DNA of 10,783 bases from a virus (IMGVR_UViG_3300025288_001461), one strand, 5' to 3'. Positions 2,430 to 10,458 are shown, numbered from the stretch's first letter. The notes: generated by a model not told the origin, from the letters alone. Program-made: numbers and translations.

Positions 2430-3434
2430 CTACGATTTTAATCGTTTCACAACTTTGACTTCTTCTAATCCAAATTGATCTTCCACAACACTTGGATTTA
2501 TACCACTTAAACTTTGTTCTCTTAATGAGAAAATGTTTTTAGCTACAATATTTGTATTCTTATATGTTTGTATTTGTGGTGCTTTTACTGTTAAAAATTT
2601 TTCTTGTTCTAATATTGTCGGATTATTTTCTTGTTGTTCTCTCAATTTTTTAGTTAAATCTGCAATACGAAGTTCCATATTTAACTTTGGATTTTCTTGT
2701 AATTTCTTTTTACCTTGATTTGGAGTTGGTTTTGGTAATTTATTTTTTAGCCTTGTTTTGTTTTCCACTTTTACACTTGGTTCTATCGATTTATCATCCT
2801 TTGCATTTAGTTTGTTATCCATAGACAAAACAATATTTTCAATTTTTTTAACATCTAAATCTACAACCAAACTAGAAGGAACTTGTCCATGACCAGTCAT
2901 TGGTGTCTGTTCTAATTTAACCTCTTTAATATCTCCATCCATTTTTGCTTTAATTAATAATTCATTAATTAATAATTCTTCATTAATATTAATTTTCTCT
3001 TGTGGCTTAACATCTAACTTTGGTTTCTTTGGTTTTTTTGATTTTTTTATTCCAAATTCATCACCTAAATCATTTTTATCTACTAGATTTAAAAACACTC
3101 CAAAATCTTTCACCTTATGTTCTAATTTTAAATGACTTTCTGTTTTTAATAAAACATCACTTGTATGTTCAAAAGAAAAATCTTTTTGCTCTAAAGACAT
3201 ACCTATTTCTATTAATTTTTTCTTTGATATATCATTAGTTAAATCTGTCACATTCAATAATTTATTTGTCTTATATAATTTAACTATATATTCCAACCCT
3301 TTCACATGCAACATTAACAATTCATGGTCTGATTCGAGTGTCTTTTTTAAAGAAGGATTTTCATATAAGGCGAGAAGATGATTGTGGTGTGACTCCAAAT
3401 CTTTTATATTTTTATATTTTAATACTTTTACCAT
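2430..3434 (-). CDS. Hypothetical Lys/Glu-rich, partly low-complexity protein
   Basis: Long ORF. The start is more likely ATG 3434 (MVKVLK), which has a GGAG RBS upstream, than 3482. Contains Lys/Pro-rich patches (KKPKKPKLDVKPQ, KLPKPTPNQ). Confidence 0.7.
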   Translation of the reverse strand: MVKVLKYKNIKDLESHHNHLLALYENPSLKKTLESDHELLMLHVKGLEYIVKLYKTNKLLNVTDLTNDISKKKLIEIGMSLEQKDFSFEHTSDVLLKTESHLKLEHKVKDFGVFLNLVDKNDLGDEFGIKKSKKPKKPKLDVKPQEKININEELLINELLIKAKMDGDIKEVKLEQTPMTGHGQVPSSLVVDLDVKKIENIVLSMDNKLNAKDDKSIEPSVKVENKTRLKNKLPKPTPNQGKKKLQENPKLNMELRIADLTKKLREQQENNPTILEQEKFLTVKAPQIQTYKNTNIVAKNIFSLREQSLSGINPSVVEDQFGLEEVKVVKRLKS

Positions 3435-3536
3435 AACAGCTCCATTATATATTAATTGTAATATATAAAATAATAAATTCAATACATTTGTATATATTTC
3501 TATATCAAAATATATTGATATGTTTTTTCCCTTTCT

Positions 3537-4638: not shown

Positions 4639-5916
4639 TTATTTTAATAAAGTCTGTTCTCTTTCTGGACCTGTTGAAATAATAGAGATTTTAACTTCTA
4701 ATTTTTTTTCTAAATAATCAAAATAAGTTTTAGCTTTCTTTGGTAACTTATTATAATCACTTATAGATTGAGTTGTTTCTAACCAACCTTTAAATGTTTT
4801 ATATACAGGTGTTAATTTACTTATTTTTTCAATTGAAAATGGCAATACATCAATTTTATTTTCCTGTTCATCTACATAATGTGTGCACACCTGTATTTCA
4901 TCAAACTTATCAAGAATATCCATCTTTGTTATTGCAAGATCGGTAATTCCATTAATTTGAATTGCTCTTTTTAATGCAGGAATATCAAACCAACCACATC
5001 TTCTTGGACGACCTGTTGTTGCACCATACTCTCCACCTAAATCTCTAATTTTTTGACCGACTTCATTATCTTGCTCAGTTGGAAATAGCCCAGAACCAAC
5101 TCTTGTGCAATAAGCCTTAGCAACACCAATTACTTTATATCCACCTGACATACCTAATCCCGAACCTGATGCCGCTTGAGAAGCAACACAATGTGATGAA
5201 GTTACATAAGGATATGTTCCAAAACTAACATCCAACATTGCACCTTGTGCTCCTTCAAACAAAAGTGGTATCTTTTTTTGTTGTAATTTAAATAATTGAT
5301 TTGGAACATCTGAAACAAAGTTTTTAATTTTTTTAGATTGAGCAATCAATTCTTTTAATTCCTTGGTTATATTTAACTTTTGAATTGCTTCAGATTCAGG
5401 ATAAATACTTTTGTAATAAGCAATTAAATTTTCTAATCTATCTTTTAGTGATGACTCATAGAGGTGATGAACTCTAACAGACCTTCTACCTACATTATCT
5501 TCATAAGCTGGACCAATTCCACGACCTGTTGTTCCTATTTTGGCAGAACCAGTTTTTCTCGCTTCTGAAGCCTGGTCAACCAAACTATGAACATTTAAAA
5601 TTAGTGGACAATTTTCTGCGATAAAAAATCTTCCTTCAATATTAACATTTTCCTTATTTAATCCTTCTATTTCTTTTAATAGTGCATCTAAACTTACGAC
5701 AACTCCACTTCCTATATAGCAATTTATATCAGAATGAAGAACTCCTGATGGAATTAAGTGCAATACTGTTTTTTTCCCATCAACCCATAATGTATGACCG
5801 GCATTATGACCTCCATGGAAACGCACCACATGCTTAAAATTCTTTGCAAAATAATCAACAATTTTTCCCTTACCTTCATCACCCCATTGAGCACCAATAA
5901 TAATAGCATTTTTCAT
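4639..5916 (-). CDS. purA: Adenylosuccinate synthetase
   Basis: 425 aa with QWGDEGKG, GGHNAGHT, IGTTGRGIGPAY, FEGAQG, GTYPYVTSS, GATTGRPRRCGW, TKMD and ISTGPER. AAGGGA RBS. Confidence 0.97.
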   Translation of the reverse strand: MKNAIIIGAQWGDEGKGKIVDYFAKNFKHVVRFHGGHNAGHTLWVDGKKTVLHLIPSGVLHSDINCYIGSGVVVSLDALLKEIEGLNKENVNIEGRFFIAENCPLILNVHSLVDQASEARKTGSAKIGTTGRGIGPAYEDNVGRRSVRVHHLYESSLKDRLENLIAYYKSIYPESEAIQKLNITKELKELIAQSKKIKNFVSDVPNQLFKLQQKKIPLLFEGAQGAMLDVSFGTYPYVTSSHCVASQAASGSGLGMSGGYKVIGVAKAYCTRVGSGLFPTEQDNEVGQKIRDLGGEYGATTGRPRRCGWFDIPALKRAIQINGITDLAITKMDILDKFDEIQVCTHYVDEQENKIDVLPFSIEKISKLTPVYKTFKGWLETTQSISDYNKLPKKAKTYFDYLEKKLEVKISIISTGPEREQTLLK

Positions 5917-6019: not shown

Positions 6020-7138
6020 ATGACAACTTATTATTTAACAAAAGAAGACTTATTAAAGATTTGTATTTTTAATGGGGTATTTTCAGAAGATGTTTCATAT
6101 AATTATTTATCTTCAGGCGATACTTCAAAAGATTTTTTTGATGAATATATCATACGAAACTTACTATATAAAAATCCTTTGTTACAAAAAGATTTTGATA
6201 ACCTTACAAAAGATAATAAATCAATTCACATTAACAGTTTTATTGATATTTTTGATGGAAAAATTAAATCTATGGATTTTTACGATACTATTTTTGGAAC
6301 TTCCTATTGTCGTGTAAAAGATAAAGATAGTAAAAGAATTAATTTTTTTAAAAAACTTTTTGAATCAGATTCTTCTCTTATTCTTGAACTTCATGACAAA
6401 CTCAAAAAAAGTGATAATGGTGAAGATTTTGCACTTCATGATGCTTATTTTCAAATACTTAAAACAAAAAAAGCTAAAGAATTAAATATTGACCATAATG
6501 AAATTAGAACTAATATTGATAAATTTTCAACAAACCTTGAATTTACATATTGCAAAAAAAAGATAAATGCATATTTAAATAACTTTCCCAAAGATATTAA
6601 TTTATATAACCATATTATAAAAAATTTAGATAATGAAATTAACAGAATGGGTAGTGTTAGAGTTTTCTTAGAAGAAAAAATATCTTTATTCCCACAAAAA
6701 GTAATAGATAAACATCATCAAGAATTAATTTCATTATCTCCTTTTACTGAGGAAAAAAACTTCCATTATTCAATCAAAATAAATGCTGAGTATTTAATTT
6801 CAAATTTTAAAAAATCACAGACTGAAGCATTAGAAATAAAAAAGAATTTTCACATCGAGTTTAGTGAATTTTTATGCAATAAATTTAAAAACTGCAATAG
6901 AATCAAAATGTATCAAGGGATTGGAGTTAATTTAATTTTTCAAAATGAAAAAGACAGAGACGAAGCTATACACATTTTTAGCCTCATTTCACAAGACTTT
7001 GATTCCTTATTTGGTAATGCAAATACATCACCAGGAGCAAACTATTTTACAACCTATCTAGAACGACTTGAAGCATTAACTAAATTAAATAATGAATTAG
7101 ATATTAACCAAGGTAAAACCAAGAAAAATAAAATTTAA
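6020..7138 (+). CDS. Hypothetical protein (372 aa) with basic C-terminal tail ending KKNKI
   Basis: Long ORF with RBS and promoter. No recognisable domain. Confidence 0.8.
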   Translation: MTTYYLTKEDLLKICIFNGVFSEDVSYNYLSSGDTSKDFFDEYIIRNLLYKNPLLQKDFDNLTKDNKSIHINSFIDIFDGKIKSMDFYDTIFGTSYCRVKDKDSKRINFFKKLFESDSSLILELHDKLKKSDNGEDFALHDAYFQILKTKKAKELNIDHNEIRTNIDKFSTNLEFTYCKKKINAYLNNFPKDINLYNHIIKNLDNEINRMGSVRVFLEEKISLFPQKVIDKHHQELISLSPFTEEKNFHYSIKINAEYLISNFKKSQTEALEIKKNFHIEFSEFLCNKFKNCNRIKMYQGIGVNLIFQNEKDRDEAIHIFSLISQDFDSLFGNANTSPGANYFTTYLERLEALTKLNNELDINQGKTKKNKI

Positions 7139-7139
7139 A

Positions 7140-9020
7140 TTATATTTTAATTCTTTTCCCCTTATTTTCATTTTTATCTAATCCAACACTTAATTGTTGA
7201 GTTAAAACTCTTGCATTAAGTTCAAACATAAACTCTGTATCTTTAATGTTTTCTTTTGTAAGAACATTTAATCCATTGAAAATATTTTCCCAATCAGTAT
7301 TCTTATCACTTAAAAATGACTTATATAACCCCTTAATTGTATTAATCCAATTTTTTCTTGAATCTTTATTATTTACATATAAATCAATATCAAAATCATG
7401 CCATTTACTAATATTCGTAAATATGTGTTTTTCAAAAGCATTGGAACTATATTTATTTATAAAATAATAGAATAAAAATTCTTTTTGTTCTTTAGTATAA
7501 ATTTCATCCTGTGATTTATCAAAAATAAACCTTGGGTTAAATAACCAAAGTGATGATTCATCTATTAATCTTGCATTAACATCTAAACTTTCTAAAACGT
7601 TTAATCCAAAACAATTTTTGGCTAACCATGTTTTATTTAATATTTCTTTAATTTCTGCCTTTTGAACAGAATTTATTTCTTGCTGTCCATTGTTAATATT
7701 TTGCCAATCTGAATCAGTAATTGTAGTGAATAAATTTTTGTATCCATTTTCACTTCCTTTTTTAGCTATAGGTGATATATCTAAAATGCTAATAAACTCA
7801 TTAATTCCTATTTTCATTTCAGCTAATTTTTCAAAAAAAGTTAACCCATTTTCAAACTTTTTAAATAAAGTAAATGTTTCTGAACTATTAAATATTTTTT
7901 CTAAACGAGACTTAAATCCACGATTTATTGAAGCCTCCGGATTCTTTGAGTATTTATCAAATGGCTGAATACCTAACCGAACTAAAGCATTAATTATTTT
8001 ATCTATACCATACGTATCTTTTTCTTTTATATGTTTTATTGAAGAACTTCCGTCTTTTTTAAAAACTTCAACAAGTTTTTTATTTACTAATTTAAACATA
8101 TACTTATCATCTTCTAACAATAGATATATTAACTCATGATTTTTTACTTTATCTAAATTTTTTAAAATTATATCTCTTACTTCTTCACTTTTTTGCTTTA
8201 AATTCATTATTTTCAATAAAGCCTTATATGGACGTAAATCTTTTGAAACAAATGATAAATTAAGTAAAGAATTCTTTTGTTCTAAACTTAAAAAATCTTT
8301 TTTCTCCACAATAAAATTAGCCATATTTTTGGCTCTATAATGTTTATTAGAAGAAATATACCTTAATTCTGTTTGTATTTTTTTATAAAAATGTTCAAAC
8401 TGAGATTCACTCATATATTTTGAAATTATATTATTTTTATTATTTACCATTTTCCAATATAAATCTAAAACAACCGGATTTCTCTCTGCAATACTAAGTA
8501 TACTTTTTTCACTTGGTGGATTCACATAAGATAATCCCATATCTGTCAATGTTGTAATAGTGCTTAGTAACTTCTTATCATATGCTAATTCCAATATTGG
8601 CCAACCCTCATGTTCTAGCTTTAATATATATTCTTTTCCTAACTTATTTATAATATAAGACATTATTTTATCACTACTAAGAGACATAGAAAAATTATCT
8701 AATAAAATCATCACTTCAGGAATAAATTTAGGGTTTTTTTTGTTACTTATTTGAGTTTTATTGTTATCTTTTTTACTAAAATTACTAAATTCAGAATATT
8801 CTTTTTTTAAATCGTATCCAAAATTTTCACAAAGTTCCAATAATCCTTTTGTAGATTCAAATTCACTAGAATCTTGGGCGAATGAATTAAAAAATGTTAA
8901 CCCTTTTCCCGATAATTCATTTACATCTTTTTTAAAAATTTCAGGCTGATATTTACTTAGTAATGTAAAAACTCCTAATTTATCATTACTCAATAAATTT
9001 TCTAATTCTTTTGATAACAT
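7140..9020 (-). CDS. Hypothetical protein (626 aa) with basic C-terminal tail ending KRIKI
   Basis: Long ORF with AAGGA RBS. Probably helical; a weak ankyrin-like stretch (GWPILELAYDKKLLSTITTLTDMG) is not convincing. Confidence 0.8.
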   Translation of the reverse strand: MLSKELENLLSNDKLGVFTLLSKYQPEIFKKDVNELSGKGLTFFNSFAQDSSEFESTKGLLELCENFGYDLKKEYSEFSNFSKKDNNKTQISNKKNPKFIPEVMILLDNFSMSLSSDKIMSYIINKLGKEYILKLEHEGWPILELAYDKKLLSTITTLTDMGLSYVNPPSEKSILSIAERNPVVLDLYWKMVNNKNNIISKYMSESQFEHFYKKIQTELRYISSNKHYRAKNMANFIVEKKDFLSLEQKNSLLNLSFVSKDLRPYKALLKIMNLKQKSEEVRDIILKNLDKVKNHELIYLLLEDDKYMFKLVNKKLVEVFKKDGSSSIKHIKEKDTYGIDKIINALVRLGIQPFDKYSKNPEASINRGFKSRLEKIFNSSETFTLFKKFENGLTFFEKLAEMKIGINEFISILDISPIAKKGSENGYKNLFTTITDSDWQNINNGQQEINSVQKAEIKEILNKTWLAKNCFGLNVLESLDVNARLIDESSLWLFNPRFIFDKSQDEIYTKEQKEFLFYYFINKYSSNAFEKHIFTNISKWHDFDIDLYVNNKDSRKNWINTIKGLYKSFLSDKNTDWENIFNGLNVLTKENIKDTEFMFELNARVLTQQLSVGLDKNENKGKRIKI

Positions 9021-9120: not shown

Positions 9121-9486
9121 ATGAATAAAAACTCAGATAAGCATTTTGTTATTTACAAAAATGAAACAATCACTAGAATTAATCCTCAACTTGTTTCTAA
9201 ACAACAAATCTCCGATGATGAACTTGAAATTATTAAAAATCTTCACATTCAACGTTTTCTTATTGAAAAATCTTTCATTTCTGGAGATATTGATGCTACA
9301 AACTACAGAGAAGCTTGGGCAATTAATCAGTTTTCTCTTCAACAGGCATGGAAGTTTAGTAAAGATAAAAACTTTCATGTTTTTACTTCTATGCAAGGAT
9401 GTTCATGTCCTAGTATGAATAATTATCCTTATGGACCATATTCTTACTCTAAAACTTGTCGTGTTCATGGTGAAATTACCAAATAA
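9121..9486 (+). CDS. Phage-type hypothetical protein with Cys/His motif
   Basis: LQQAWKF.KD.NFH...GCSCP.M.N...C.VHG resembles a small phage family I recall (LQ.LW.F..D..YH.W..P.C.CP.MDN...CP.HG), unverified. The CxC...CxxH spacing suggests metal binding. Confidence 0.65.
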   Translation: MNKNSDKHFVIYKNETITRINPQLVSKQQISDDELEIIKNLHIQRFLIEKSFISGDIDATNYREAWAINQFSLQQAWKFSKDKNFHVFTSMQGCSCPSMNNYPYGPYSYSKTCRVHGEITK

Positions 9487-9490
9487 CTAA

Positions 9491-9841
9491 ATTTTTGCTA
9501 CAGGTACAACAGGCATTATTTTGGAAAATATTTTAGAACAAACAGTAACCAAATTTTAAAGTGGTCTATTGAGGGGTGATTTGCAAATTGGTTCAAGAAT
9601 TGAAGAAGGAGAAATTGAGATGATTATTTTCTTTTGTAATCCACTTGAGCAACAACCACATGACCCAGATGTAAAAGCCTTATTACGTATTGCCTCTGTT
9701 TGGAATATTCCTGTTGCATGTAACCGTTCCACAGCAGATTTTCTTATATCTTCACCATTAATGAATTAAAATTATGAAAGAAAAATTCAAGACTTCAGCC
9801 ATTACAATAATCGGATGAATCATACAGGAATTAAATCTTGA
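9491..9841 (+). pseudogene. mgsA: Methylglyoxal synthase remnant, 5'-truncated with in-frame stops
   Basis: One frame reads IFATGTTG...[15 protein letters not shown]...IIFFCNPL...[52 protein letters not shown] stops are at 9488, 9557 and 9767. GPLGGD has become GLLRGD and WDP has become CNP. The N-terminal ~40 codons are absent. Confidence 0.9.
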
Positions 9842-9844
9842 TTT

Positions 9845-9874
9845 TTGATTTTTTTCATAATTATGATATAATTT
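9845..9874 (+). promoter_or_regulatory. Sigma70-type promoter of the RNase P RNA gene
   Basis: TTGATT (9845-9850), 16-nt spacer, TG-A-TATAAT (9864-9872). The predicted start site (~9878-9879) coincides with the 5' end of the P1 helix. Confidence 0.75.
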
Positions 9875-9876
9875 GT

Positions 9877-10178
9877 AAAAATTTTGTGGTGAGACAATCG
9901 CAAGTTAATAACTTGAGGAAGTTCAGGACACACGCAAAAGGCGAGTAGGAGATAGTTGTTCGTAAGGATGAGTGAATTAAGGTGTTAACTTTATGCTATC
10001 GTTAATACTACCGTGATATAGTGTGCAACACAAACAGTACTTGAGAACCTTTTGCTTATAAGTACGGGTTGTGGCACCTTTGACCACTTTAAAAGGTGGC
10101 GAGGACAGTGAAAGCTGTAGATTAATGATTGTTACTCGTAAGAGACACAAAATCCTGGCTATGAACCACAAAATTTTT
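9877..10178 (+). ncRNA. rnpB: RNase P RNA (divergent, compact bacterial-type ribozyme)
   Basis: P1: 14 perfect bp, 9877-9890/10165-10178. P2: GACAAUC 9893-9899/GAUUGUU 10127-10133. P3: CAAGUU 9901-9906/AACUUG 9910-9915. CR-I: GAGGAAGUUCAGGA 9915-9928, pairing as P4 with CR-V ACACAAAAUCCUGGCUA 10145-10161 with a bulged U. P5: CACAC 9929-9933/GUGUG 10021-10025, then CAA. P15: CACAA 10029-10033/UUGUG 10069-10073, preceded by GGG-U. P18-like: ACAGU-GAAA-GCUGU 10105-10118, then AGAUUAAUG. P19: CUC-GUAA-GAG 10135-10144. GC content is visibly higher than the flanks. Confidence 0.92.
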
Positions 10179-10200
10179 TATTTTTTTCGGTTCTATTTAT

Positions 10201-10458
10201 TATAGAAAACTTTTGTTTAATATTAATTGTGGTAGCTTAAGTGGTTTAAAACAAACTTAATGTTGGGTTTCATGGATGCCTTCTGATTATGACAAAACAG
10301 TTACTTCTATATCTGAAATTTTTGACATGATGGGATTTGAATATGATGTAACTGAAAATGGAGATATTTCAATTACTGGATATGATAGTAAAACTGGTAA
10401 AGAGGAACTTTTCTTTTTACGAATTCCTCATTTAATTCCCTCTTTCCTCACTATATGA
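10201..10458 (+). pseudogene. Decayed small phage-type gene
   Basis: The frame of ORF 10276-10458 extends upstream as ...CGSLSGLKQT*CWVSWMPSDYDKT...MGFE...G.I.ITGYDSKTGKEELF, with TAA at 10258-10260. This resembles a family I recall as GGS.SG..QT..WFSWMP.DY...GF...YDSKTGQE.LF (unverified). No start or RBS for the full-length form. Confidence 0.4.

Follow-up and report, generated by a model that had tools for sequence, protein, structure and literature searches.

RNase P RNA, Rfam clan CL00002, trims new tRNAs and is among the few ribozymes common to nearly all cells, and its P4 core ranks among the most conserved RNA sequences. In class A (RF00010, with E. coli M1 RNA, the rnpB product), helices P1-P5, in which P4 carries a bulged U, are combined with a P15-17 hairpin followed by a GGU motif, a P6 pseudoknot that links J5/7 to the P17 loop, a P18 with a GNRA loop and a full specificity domain, P7-P14. 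Class B (RF00011, the Bacillus/Mycoplasma type) has P19 and a P5.1/P10.1/P15.1 set but lacks P6, P16 and P17. Smaller forms occur in cells, e.g., the RNase P RNA of Mycoplasma fermentans is 276 nt long and lacks P12. Diverged RNase P RNAs of groundwater CPR bacteria were detected only at scores lower than the Rfam cut-offs (Lui et al. 2021, PMC8172020), and in type T RNase P RNA of the Thermoproteaceae, by the account of Lai et al. 2010 given in PMC8172020, the specificity domain is mostly lost and the catalytic domain is kept.

Here, an RNA gene at 9877-10180 (+) is described in the window, i.e., the whole stretch of 10,783 nucleotides of DNA that was analysed. Read from its sequence, it is an intact bacterial-type RNase P RNA gene with a presumably catalytic product of ~294-304 nt. 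It is a structural variant of known RNase P RNA, and its novelty lies in a rewritten P4 and a specificity domain of 79 nt. A search of the whole 10.8-kb window at Rfam gathering scores gave zero RNA family matches, while a permissive search of 9700-10350 returned RNaseP_bact_b (RF00011) at 9886-10166 (+), with 36.8 bits and an E value of 1.6e-8. The alignment is full-length (model positions 1-365), and the deleted positions are mostly those of the specificity domain (about half of that part). The Rfam comparison that had been proposed as a check thus gave a divided answer, because the match to RF00011 runs from end to end, yet at 36.8 bits it misses the gathering cut-off of this family (97), as the RNA does those of the other RNase P RNA families; the E value is nonetheless far beyond chance. 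The original prediction had placed an intact RNase P RNA, with its catalytic-domain helices in the right order, in a 302-nt GC-enriched island within 9845-10187. These coordinates and the list of helices are correct: every helix is perfectly paired according to a pairing script, the Rfam E value is that given above, the RNA is expressed, and the island has 38% GC vs 25.6% in the window. Minimum-free-energy folding of the RNA by itself is unremarkable (z = -1.8).

The elements of the gene and its upstream neighbour are listed below. Helices were named by inspection against the Rfam alignment, and the pairing was then verified by script.

9560..9769 (+): methylglyoxal synthase (mgsA) remnant, C-terminal ~69 aa only (stop-to-stop ORF listing; Pfam MGS on the 62-66-aa product)
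9845..9850 (+): -35-like hexamer TTGATT (promoter scan, 10/12 matches, 16-nt spacer)
9864..9872 (+): extended -10 TGaTATAAT (promoter scan; the TG precedes the second hexamer)
9877..10180 (+): RNase P RNA transcript, ~294-304 nt (Rfam RF00011 and metatranscriptome contigs)
9877..9890 (+): P1 5' strand, partner 10165-10178 (14/14 pairs; helix ends coincide with RNA contig ends)
9893..9899 (+): P2 5' strand, partner 10127-10133 (7/7 pairs; compensatory changes in 3/7 pairs)
9901..9915 (+): P3 hairpin, 6 bp, 3-nt loop (6/6 pairs; covaries with homologues)
9916..9928 (+): J3/4 and P4 5' strand AGGAAGUUCAGGA, U9922 bulged, partner 10153-10160 (8/8 pairs)
9929..9933 (+): P5 5' strand, partner 10021-10025 (5/5 pairs)
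9934..9941 (+): P6 5' strand GCAAAAGG, partner CCUUUUGC at 10048-10055 in the P15-17 hairpin loop (8/8 pairs, pseudoknot)
9942..10020 (+): specificity-domain remnant, 79 nt (P7, inner helix, hairpins A and B)
9942-9948 / 10008-10013 (+): P7 (6/6 pairs)
9951-9956 / 9995-10000 (+): inner helix of the specificity remnant (pairing script)
9958-9969 (+): hairpin A, GUAA loop (pairing script)
9978-9993 (+): hairpin B (pairing script; pairing kept in near relatives)
10037..10065 (+): P15-P17-like hairpin, whose loop is the source of the P6 3' strand (outer stem 7/7)
10066..10071 (+): GGGUUG, in which GGU 10067-10069 is the candidate tRNA 3'-CCA binding site (sequence; putative function)
10084..10099 (+): extra hairpin between L15 and P18, CCACUU-UAAA-AGGUGG (6/6 pairs)
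10105..10118 (+): P18, GAAA loop (5/5 pairs)
10127..10133 (+): P2 3' strand (pairing script and covariation)
10135..10144 (+): P19, 3 bp, GUAA loop (3/3 pairs; covaries with homologues)
10146..10160 (+): J2/4 ACACAAAA and P4 3' strand UCCUGGCU (Rfam alignment and pairing script)
10165..10178 (+): P1 3' strand (pairing script)
10174..10189 (+): U-rich run that overlaps P1 and continues past it, likely site of 3' end formation (sequence, RNA contig ends)

The architecture is more A-like than B-like, although RF00011 is the top Rfam match. Judged from primary sequence and pairing, the catalytic domain is complete and type-A-like, being composed of P1-P5, the P6 pseudoknot, P15-17 with the GGU motif, P18 and P19. 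Class A and the window RNA have in common P1-P5, a P4 with a bulged U, the P15-17 hairpin followed by GGU, the P6 pseudoknot of J5/7 with the P17 loop and a P18 with a GNRA loop (names by inspection); in addition, homologues with the same P4 score 66-191 bits on RF00010. The window RNA differs from class A in its length (~300 nt vs 367 RF00010 consensus positions), in a specificity domain of 79 nt that has no recognisable P8-P14 set and falls short of the full P7-P14 domain, in its J3/4-P4 sequence (GAGGAAGUUCAGGAC, not GAGGAAAGUCC), in an extra hairpin before P18 and in the presence of P19, and RF00010 is not its top Rfam match. With class B it shares P19 and the best Rfam score (36.8 bits), but by inspection it harbors P6 and the P15-17 hairpin, which are class A features, and not the P5.1/P10.1/P15.1 set. 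The extra hairpin at 10084-10099 could be P15.1-like or an insertion.

The upper-case Rfam consensus of J3/4-P4 is GAGGAAAGUCC; this conserved core is absent from the 9877-10180 RNA, which reads GAGGAAGUUCAGGAC, and the Rfam match line is blank at the changed positions. All eight P4 pairs are formed, the substitutions being compensated in the 3' strand, the bulged U9922 is retained, and A-rich strands (J3/4, AGGAA, and J2/4, ACACAAAA) flank the helix. Other RNase P RNAs, with scores of up to 191 bits, have the same variant. In the specificity domain, Rfam aligns 85 nt where the model has 159 positions, and the conserved J11/12 and J12/13 modules, which read the T-loop, were not recognised on inspection of the 79-nt remnant. 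With the domain reduced to this size, the RNA probably reads the T-loop and elbow of the tRNA less strongly or in another way.

Among described systems, the reduced cellular RNAs of M. fermentans and of groundwater CPR bacteria resemble the window RNA in being small, in scoring below the cut-offs, in having lost specificity helices and in the groundwater setting, but no P4 core change is reported for those RNAs. Furthermore, the GGU motif, which is missing in about two thirds of the CPR RNAs (PMC8172020), is kept in the window RNA, and no evidence was found for a CPR affiliation of the host organism. Type T RNA, in turn, is archaeal, has archaeal proteins as its subunits and differs in the periphery of its catalytic domain; it is set apart on the basis of its description.

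Homologues were sought by scanning metagenomes for GAGGAAGTTCAGGAC, a gap of 208-238 and TCCTGGCT, i.e., for both strands of the unusual P4. Apart from one identical copy and five matches to coding sequence that are due to chance, the scan yielded ten true RNase P RNAs, eight of which match RF00010 (bact_a) at 66-191 bits and all of which sit in tRNA arrays; because the gap range left out full-size RNAs, this association between the P4 variant and tRNA arrays is biased. An eleventh carrier of the variant is found in L116, an IMG/VR provirus of 152.6 kb (CheckV 95%), where an RNase P RNA of 286 nt (40.2 bits) sits among ~29 tRNAs and a tmRNA. It has a ~75-nt stump of a specificity domain and a similar extra hairpin in the same place as that at 10084-10099. 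By eye, the L116 RNA also seems GC-rich. The jumbo phages Atu_ph07 and Phosso gave no RNase P RNA in a search that also missed the 40-bit RNA of L116, and no paper describing a phage- or virus-encoded RNase P RNA was found in the literature searched. The tRNA-array RNAs (L116, L093, L099, L106 and others) are identical to the window RNA in both P4 strands, are 278-332 nt long and mostly fall below the Rfam thresholds. Unlike the window RNA, they are located between tRNA genes, in arrays of 20-30, on contigs with 46-58% GC where measured; the window RNA has a plausible promoter of its own, no tRNA gene was seen in ~86 kb, and its genome, with 26% GC, is cell-like in appearance.

Covariation was assessed by projecting the window helices on a MAFFT alignment of 11 sequences, i.e., the window RNA and ten homologues, eight of which match bact_a at 66-191 bits, the others being L116 (40 bits) and L101 (RNaseP_arch only, 34 bits). 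P1 and P5, misaligned by MAFFT, were left out of the count. The covariation check that accompanied the original prediction gave compensatory changes in P2, P3 and P19. In P2, which is fully paired in 9/11 sequences, three of the seven pairs show such changes, and the pair 9896:10130 is A-U in two, G-C in four and U-A in five of the 11. Since the homologues were picked by P4 alone, the covariation in P2, P3 and P19 is independent of that selection. Where the window RNA has GGGUUG, the homologues have GGGU(A/U)G, and in near relatives hairpin B stays paired despite two one-sided changes, A>G at 9988 and U>C at 9990.

The RNA is found in metatranscriptomes. Assembled contigs from two aquifer RNA studies (316 and 337 nt) cover 9877-10169 and 9877-10180 with 100% identity, with zero cover over 9500-9873 and low-depth contigs only beyond 10233. 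In an ice metatranscriptome, a 306-nt contig of a 98% relative spans 9877-10179 with five substitutions and one insertion, and the same run contains further, more distant ~300-nt relatives in which the ends and the structure are kept. A discrete RNA species with ends at 9877 and 10169-10180 is therefore observed in three RNA studies (the contigs are strandless and their ends inexact). In four aquifer metatranscriptome runs, ~40-50% of the words from a 651-nt stretch are present, equal to the fraction that the RNA makes up, and DNA of the window is present in many groundwater and aquifer metagenomes. For habitat, the runs X22 and X23, in which only partial or near relatives occur, were set aside. 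Both aquifer RNA contigs are joined head-to-tail, one of them with AAA at the junction.

The ends of the RNA contigs match those of P1. A -35/extended -10 promoter that places the start at the base of P1 had been predicted, as had a U-rich tract after P1; the former is present at 9845-9872, with the RNA contigs starting 5 nt past the extended -10, and the latter is the run at 10174-10189. A canonical terminator was not found by scanning. Promoter-like sites in the AT-rich region are no rarer than expected by chance (6 found vs 5.1 expected), so that the support for the -35/extended -10 site rests on its position; it is plausible that the RNA has its own sigma-70-type promoter. Transcription from such a promoter would give a discrete ~300-nt RNA closed by the 14-bp P1. 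This RNA would be a working ribozyme with substitutions at normally invariant P4 positions, compensated on the opposite strand, and would be expected to cleave pre-tRNA 5' leaders as other bacterial RNase P RNAs do. The GGU motif would bind the tRNA 3'-CCA and an RnpA-type protein partner would be required in vivo, while the dependence on T-loop recognition may be less than in full-size RNase P RNAs.

The source contig assembles to ~71.6-71.9 kb in dozens of samples and to 137.7 kb in one. The genes of the window encode PurA, a NUDIX protein, an Rv2179c-like exonuclease and ORFans, six of the ten having PHROG matches, and ~85% of the genes on the contig are without a Pfam family. Because the main ORFs are unchanged under code 4 (TGA=W), the genetic code is 11. 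The upstream side of the RNA gene shows the gene decay that had been predicted for its flanks: only a C-terminal remnant of mgsA is present, and as the gene before it stops at 9486, there is no room for the N-terminal half; the downstream neighbour is a 60-aa ORF. Another gene remnant on the contig is that of Capsule_synth, and strand switches are frequent. Genes of envelope or cell type (Rhomboid, glycine-zipper lipoprotein, Band_7, VWA, ABC ATPase and Peptidase_M3) are found together with genes for a VirB4/TraG-like ATPase, a ParE-like toxin, a photolyase and a DUF4116-type repeat protein. The contig also carries a permuted, two-piece tmRNA of the betaproteobacterial type (RF01850, 144.8 bits), and the best identity of purA, 50%, is to Beta/Gammaproteobacteria.

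A 1641-aa RecJ-like, lineage-specific protein is encoded 8.7 kb from the RNA. Its homologues number at least 270, and several of them (~54% identity) lie on contigs of 1.07, 1.07, 1.33, 1.36, 1.90 (NCBI) and 2.34 Mb. The neighbouring ORFan of 626 aa has a homologue with 36% identity on a further contig, of 2.23 Mb and 28% GC, which shares the order of at least six families with the source contig (639/637 aa, 277/264, 367/380, 605/605, NUDIX and 1641/1646). In all, homologues of the 1641-aa protein are found on seven megabase-scale contigs, one of them syntenic. The relative also has pilin and EAL/HDOD genes. No RNase P RNA was found at the syntenic site of the 2.23-Mb relative, in a search whose filters for large input let even the RNA of the window itself go undetected. 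Sampling of the class to which the Betaproteobacteria belong gave no member of the beta_tmRNA family in 151 genomes and no 1641-aa protein in 400. At NCBI, the bin is labelled 'archaeon'.

From these observations, we consider it likely that 9877-10180 is the cellular rnpB of an uncultured, very AT-rich (~26% GC) and ORFan-rich bacterium of proteobacterial affinity that has relatives of 1-2.3 Mb and is probably host-associated; the replicon that carries it would, we infer, be a chromosome. The original prediction had assigned the locus to a jumbo phage or large mobile element. The relatives on megabase contigs, the cell-like genes, the Shine-Dalgarno-like motifs before the genes, the gene remnants, the frequent strand switches, the permuted tmRNA and the lack of any virion gene in ~86 kb of contig all speak against this assignment, and a phage or extrachromosomal reading of the context is probably wrong. 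The survey of the contig that had been suggested for deciding the matter cut both ways: in ~86 kb, neither a capsid, a portal, a large terminase nor any other virion gene was found, which counts against an element, and neither rRNA, ribosomal protein, tRNA, aminoacyl-tRNA synthetase nor rnpA genes were seen, the missing rRNA and ribosomal-protein operons counting against a cell.

The main alternative, which we regard as unlikely, is a giant extrachromosomal element or a huge phage hosted by a (beta)proteobacterium, in which a miniature RNase P RNA and a tmRNA of its own would support or take over tRNA maturation and ribosome rescue. It would account for the ~85% ORFans without a housekeeping operon in ~86 kb, for the PHROG matches, which are to small phage families, and for the VirB4/TraG-like ATPase and ParE-like toxin. 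The ClpP of the contig also fits, its nearest relatives being phage-borne: hundreds of metagenomic ClpPs share 80-86% identity with it, among them one from a locus of clearly phage-like character, the Atlas clusters nearest to it belong to Uroviricota, and the closest ClpPs of cultured phages are those of 470-490-kb jumbo phages. Two genes beside ClpP were considered as a head module, which was rejected, the 382-aa neighbour resembling a DUF4116 repeat protein and the 471-aa one a VirB4/TraG ATPase. Reduced RNase P RNAs and tmRNA are indeed known from huge phages and proviruses, e.g., L116, with the same P4, and in the size-biased searches the P4 variant was otherwise found only in small tRNA-array RNase P RNAs, one of them proviral; this distribution and the 'archaeon' label of the bin at NCBI both weigh against a cell. 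The size of the relatives' contigs (1-2.3 Mb), however, is difficult to reconcile with a phage; the largest phage genome known to us is about one third of that size. Virion and packaging genes as well as a tRNA array are lacking in ~86 kb, and in its pseudogenes and constant strand switching the contig does not resemble phage modules (compare L114). The recurrent contig ends, which were considered as genome termini, were rejected as such because they are an exact 235-bp internal inverted repeat. Nor is the lineage found in IMG/VR, where searches with the 626-aa and 188-aa proteins found no relatives and exact 21-mers of the RNA are missing, and GenBank phages gave no matches either by blastn with the window and the RNA or by tblastn with the 1641-aa protein. 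Relatives of a 156-aa hydrolase, at 38-51%, are encoded on three viral contigs, which are without the 1641-aa protein or a convincing P4. A more far-reaching form of this alternative, in which the megabase replicons with 26-28% GC and ~85% ORFans are a new class of giant bacterial viruses or elements with their own RNase P ribozyme and tmRNA, and the P4 variant marks one element-borne lineage that includes the tRNA-array copies, appears improbable.

If, instead of a cellular rnpB, the locus were a decaying rnpB pseudogene or a captured fragment, its small specificity domain and altered P4 would be signs of lost function. The Rfam score of only 36.8 bits, the changes at normally conserved P4 positions, the 79-nt specificity domain and the adjoining mgsA remnant could be read in this way, but decay would not yield an RNA with perfect pairing in all helices, P4 changes that are compensated and a bulged U that is kept. 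In addition, a discrete RNA accumulates in three RNA studies, a 98% relative and more distant ones share its ends and structure, and the P4 variant recurs in RNase P RNAs with as many as 191 bits; together, these points make a pseudogene very unlikely. A eukaryote-infecting giant virus (Nucleocytoviricota) with captured bacterial genes, despite the AT-rich, ORFan-rich sequence, the megabase relatives, the DUF4116-type repeat protein and the photolyase, is scarcely credible, because the enrichment of Shine-Dalgarno-like motifs upstream of the genes (found for 27-45% of them, with a background of 5%) rules out a virus of eukaryotes, neither a tmRNA nor an RNase P RNA of bacterial type would serve any purpose in a eukaryotic cytoplasm, and the mimivirus-type AAAATTGA motif is without notable frequency.

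As a natural, expressed RNA, the 9877-10180 RNA, with its compensated rewriting of P4 and its 79-nt specificity domain, tests which nucleotides and modules RNase P RNA requires. The P4 variant, which is common to the window RNA and to the tRNA-array and proviral RNAs, hints at an exchange of ribozyme genes between cells and mobile elements. In the lineage of this RNA, rnpB is missed at the Rfam gathering cut-offs, which matters where genome completeness is assessed by the presence of rnpB (PMC8172020). The host lineage, too, deserves attention, in that 1-2.3 Mb of very AT-rich, mostly ORFan sequence is combined with a two-piece tmRNA of the betaproteobacterial type and the label 'archaeon' in GenBank. 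The presence of tmRNA genes has been noted in archaeal-labelled genomes, with contamination or misbinning as the null explanation (PMC11915505).

The P4 variant GAGGAAGUUCAGGAC/UCCUGGCU is shared by RNase P RNAs from ten metagenome contigs and one provirus, eleven in all, most of them small and sub-threshold:

Metagenome contigs L093, L099, L106, L104, L102, L094, L101, L103, L092 and L097: RNase P RNAs with the P4 variant
L116:3195-3480, minus strand: RNase P RNA with the P4 variant, in a 152.6-kb IMG/VR provirus

All eleven are housed in dense tRNA arrays, which hold up to ~29 tRNAs plus a tmRNA. No description of an element-borne RNase P RNA was found in the literature searched. In contigs from the aquifer metatranscriptome runs X18 and X19, the 3' end of the window's RNase P RNA (10169-10180) is joined back to the 5' end (9877); in one of these contigs, three additional A residues lie between the two ends. 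The RNA may exist in circular form, its ends may have been ligated while the library was prepared, or the joint may come from the assembly.

The source genome carries the label 'archaeon' in GenBank. Its best taxonomic clue is a tmRNA gene of betaproteobacterial type, permuted into two pieces (tag ANSDTFALAA), which is located ~21 kb past the window's end on the same contig and is also present in L118; no smpB was seen near this gene. The window also encodes an intact purA, which is at most 50% identical to those of species-representative genomes, the top matches being Nitrosomonas and Burkholderiales.

L117:5827-6206, plus strand: permuted tmRNA gene (RF01850, 144.8 bits versus 84)
L118:15471-15830: permuted tmRNA gene, betaproteobacterial type
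window 4639-5916, minus strand: purA (NF002223, 557 bits)

A PurZ identity for the latter was rejected (128.6 bits versus a 300-bit cut-off).

Other features of the source genome are as follows:

L107:12104-12709, plus strand: cellular-type ClpP
L001:1243-1866 and L110:614-1186: split Capsule_synth (Kps-type) gene, fragments of 93-190 aa
L107:1604-6529, plus strand: 1641-aa protein, RecJ-like DHH plus RNase_T
window 7140-9020 (minus), 6020-7138 (plus) and 2430-3482 (minus): large helical ORFans around the 1641-aa protein
L107:19326-19560 and L118:183-417: exact 235-bp inverted repeat, copies ~71 kb apart

Hundreds of ClpPs from metagenomes match this ClpP at 80-86% identity. A phage-like locus (L114/L115) that also encodes GroES/GroEL and a homing endonuclease of the SegE type contains at least one of them, which suggests recent exchange between the source lineage and phages. 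Capsule_synth is unbroken (718 aa) at the syntenic position of the 2.23-Mb relative, a megabase contig sharing gene order with the source contig; the split gene, together with an mgsA remnant, points to ongoing gene decay.

The 1641-aa protein has at least 270 homologues in all; among the matches listed, more than 100 relatives of similar length show 43-71% identity to it. Among the surrounding ORFans, a 626-aa protein, which is closed by the basic tail KGKRIKI, has only two detectable homologues, and the others are without a family match. The inverted repeat, composed of a small HTH-like ORF and a GC-rich hairpin element of ~69 nt, accounts for the breaks that recur at two fixed positions in dozens of assemblies.
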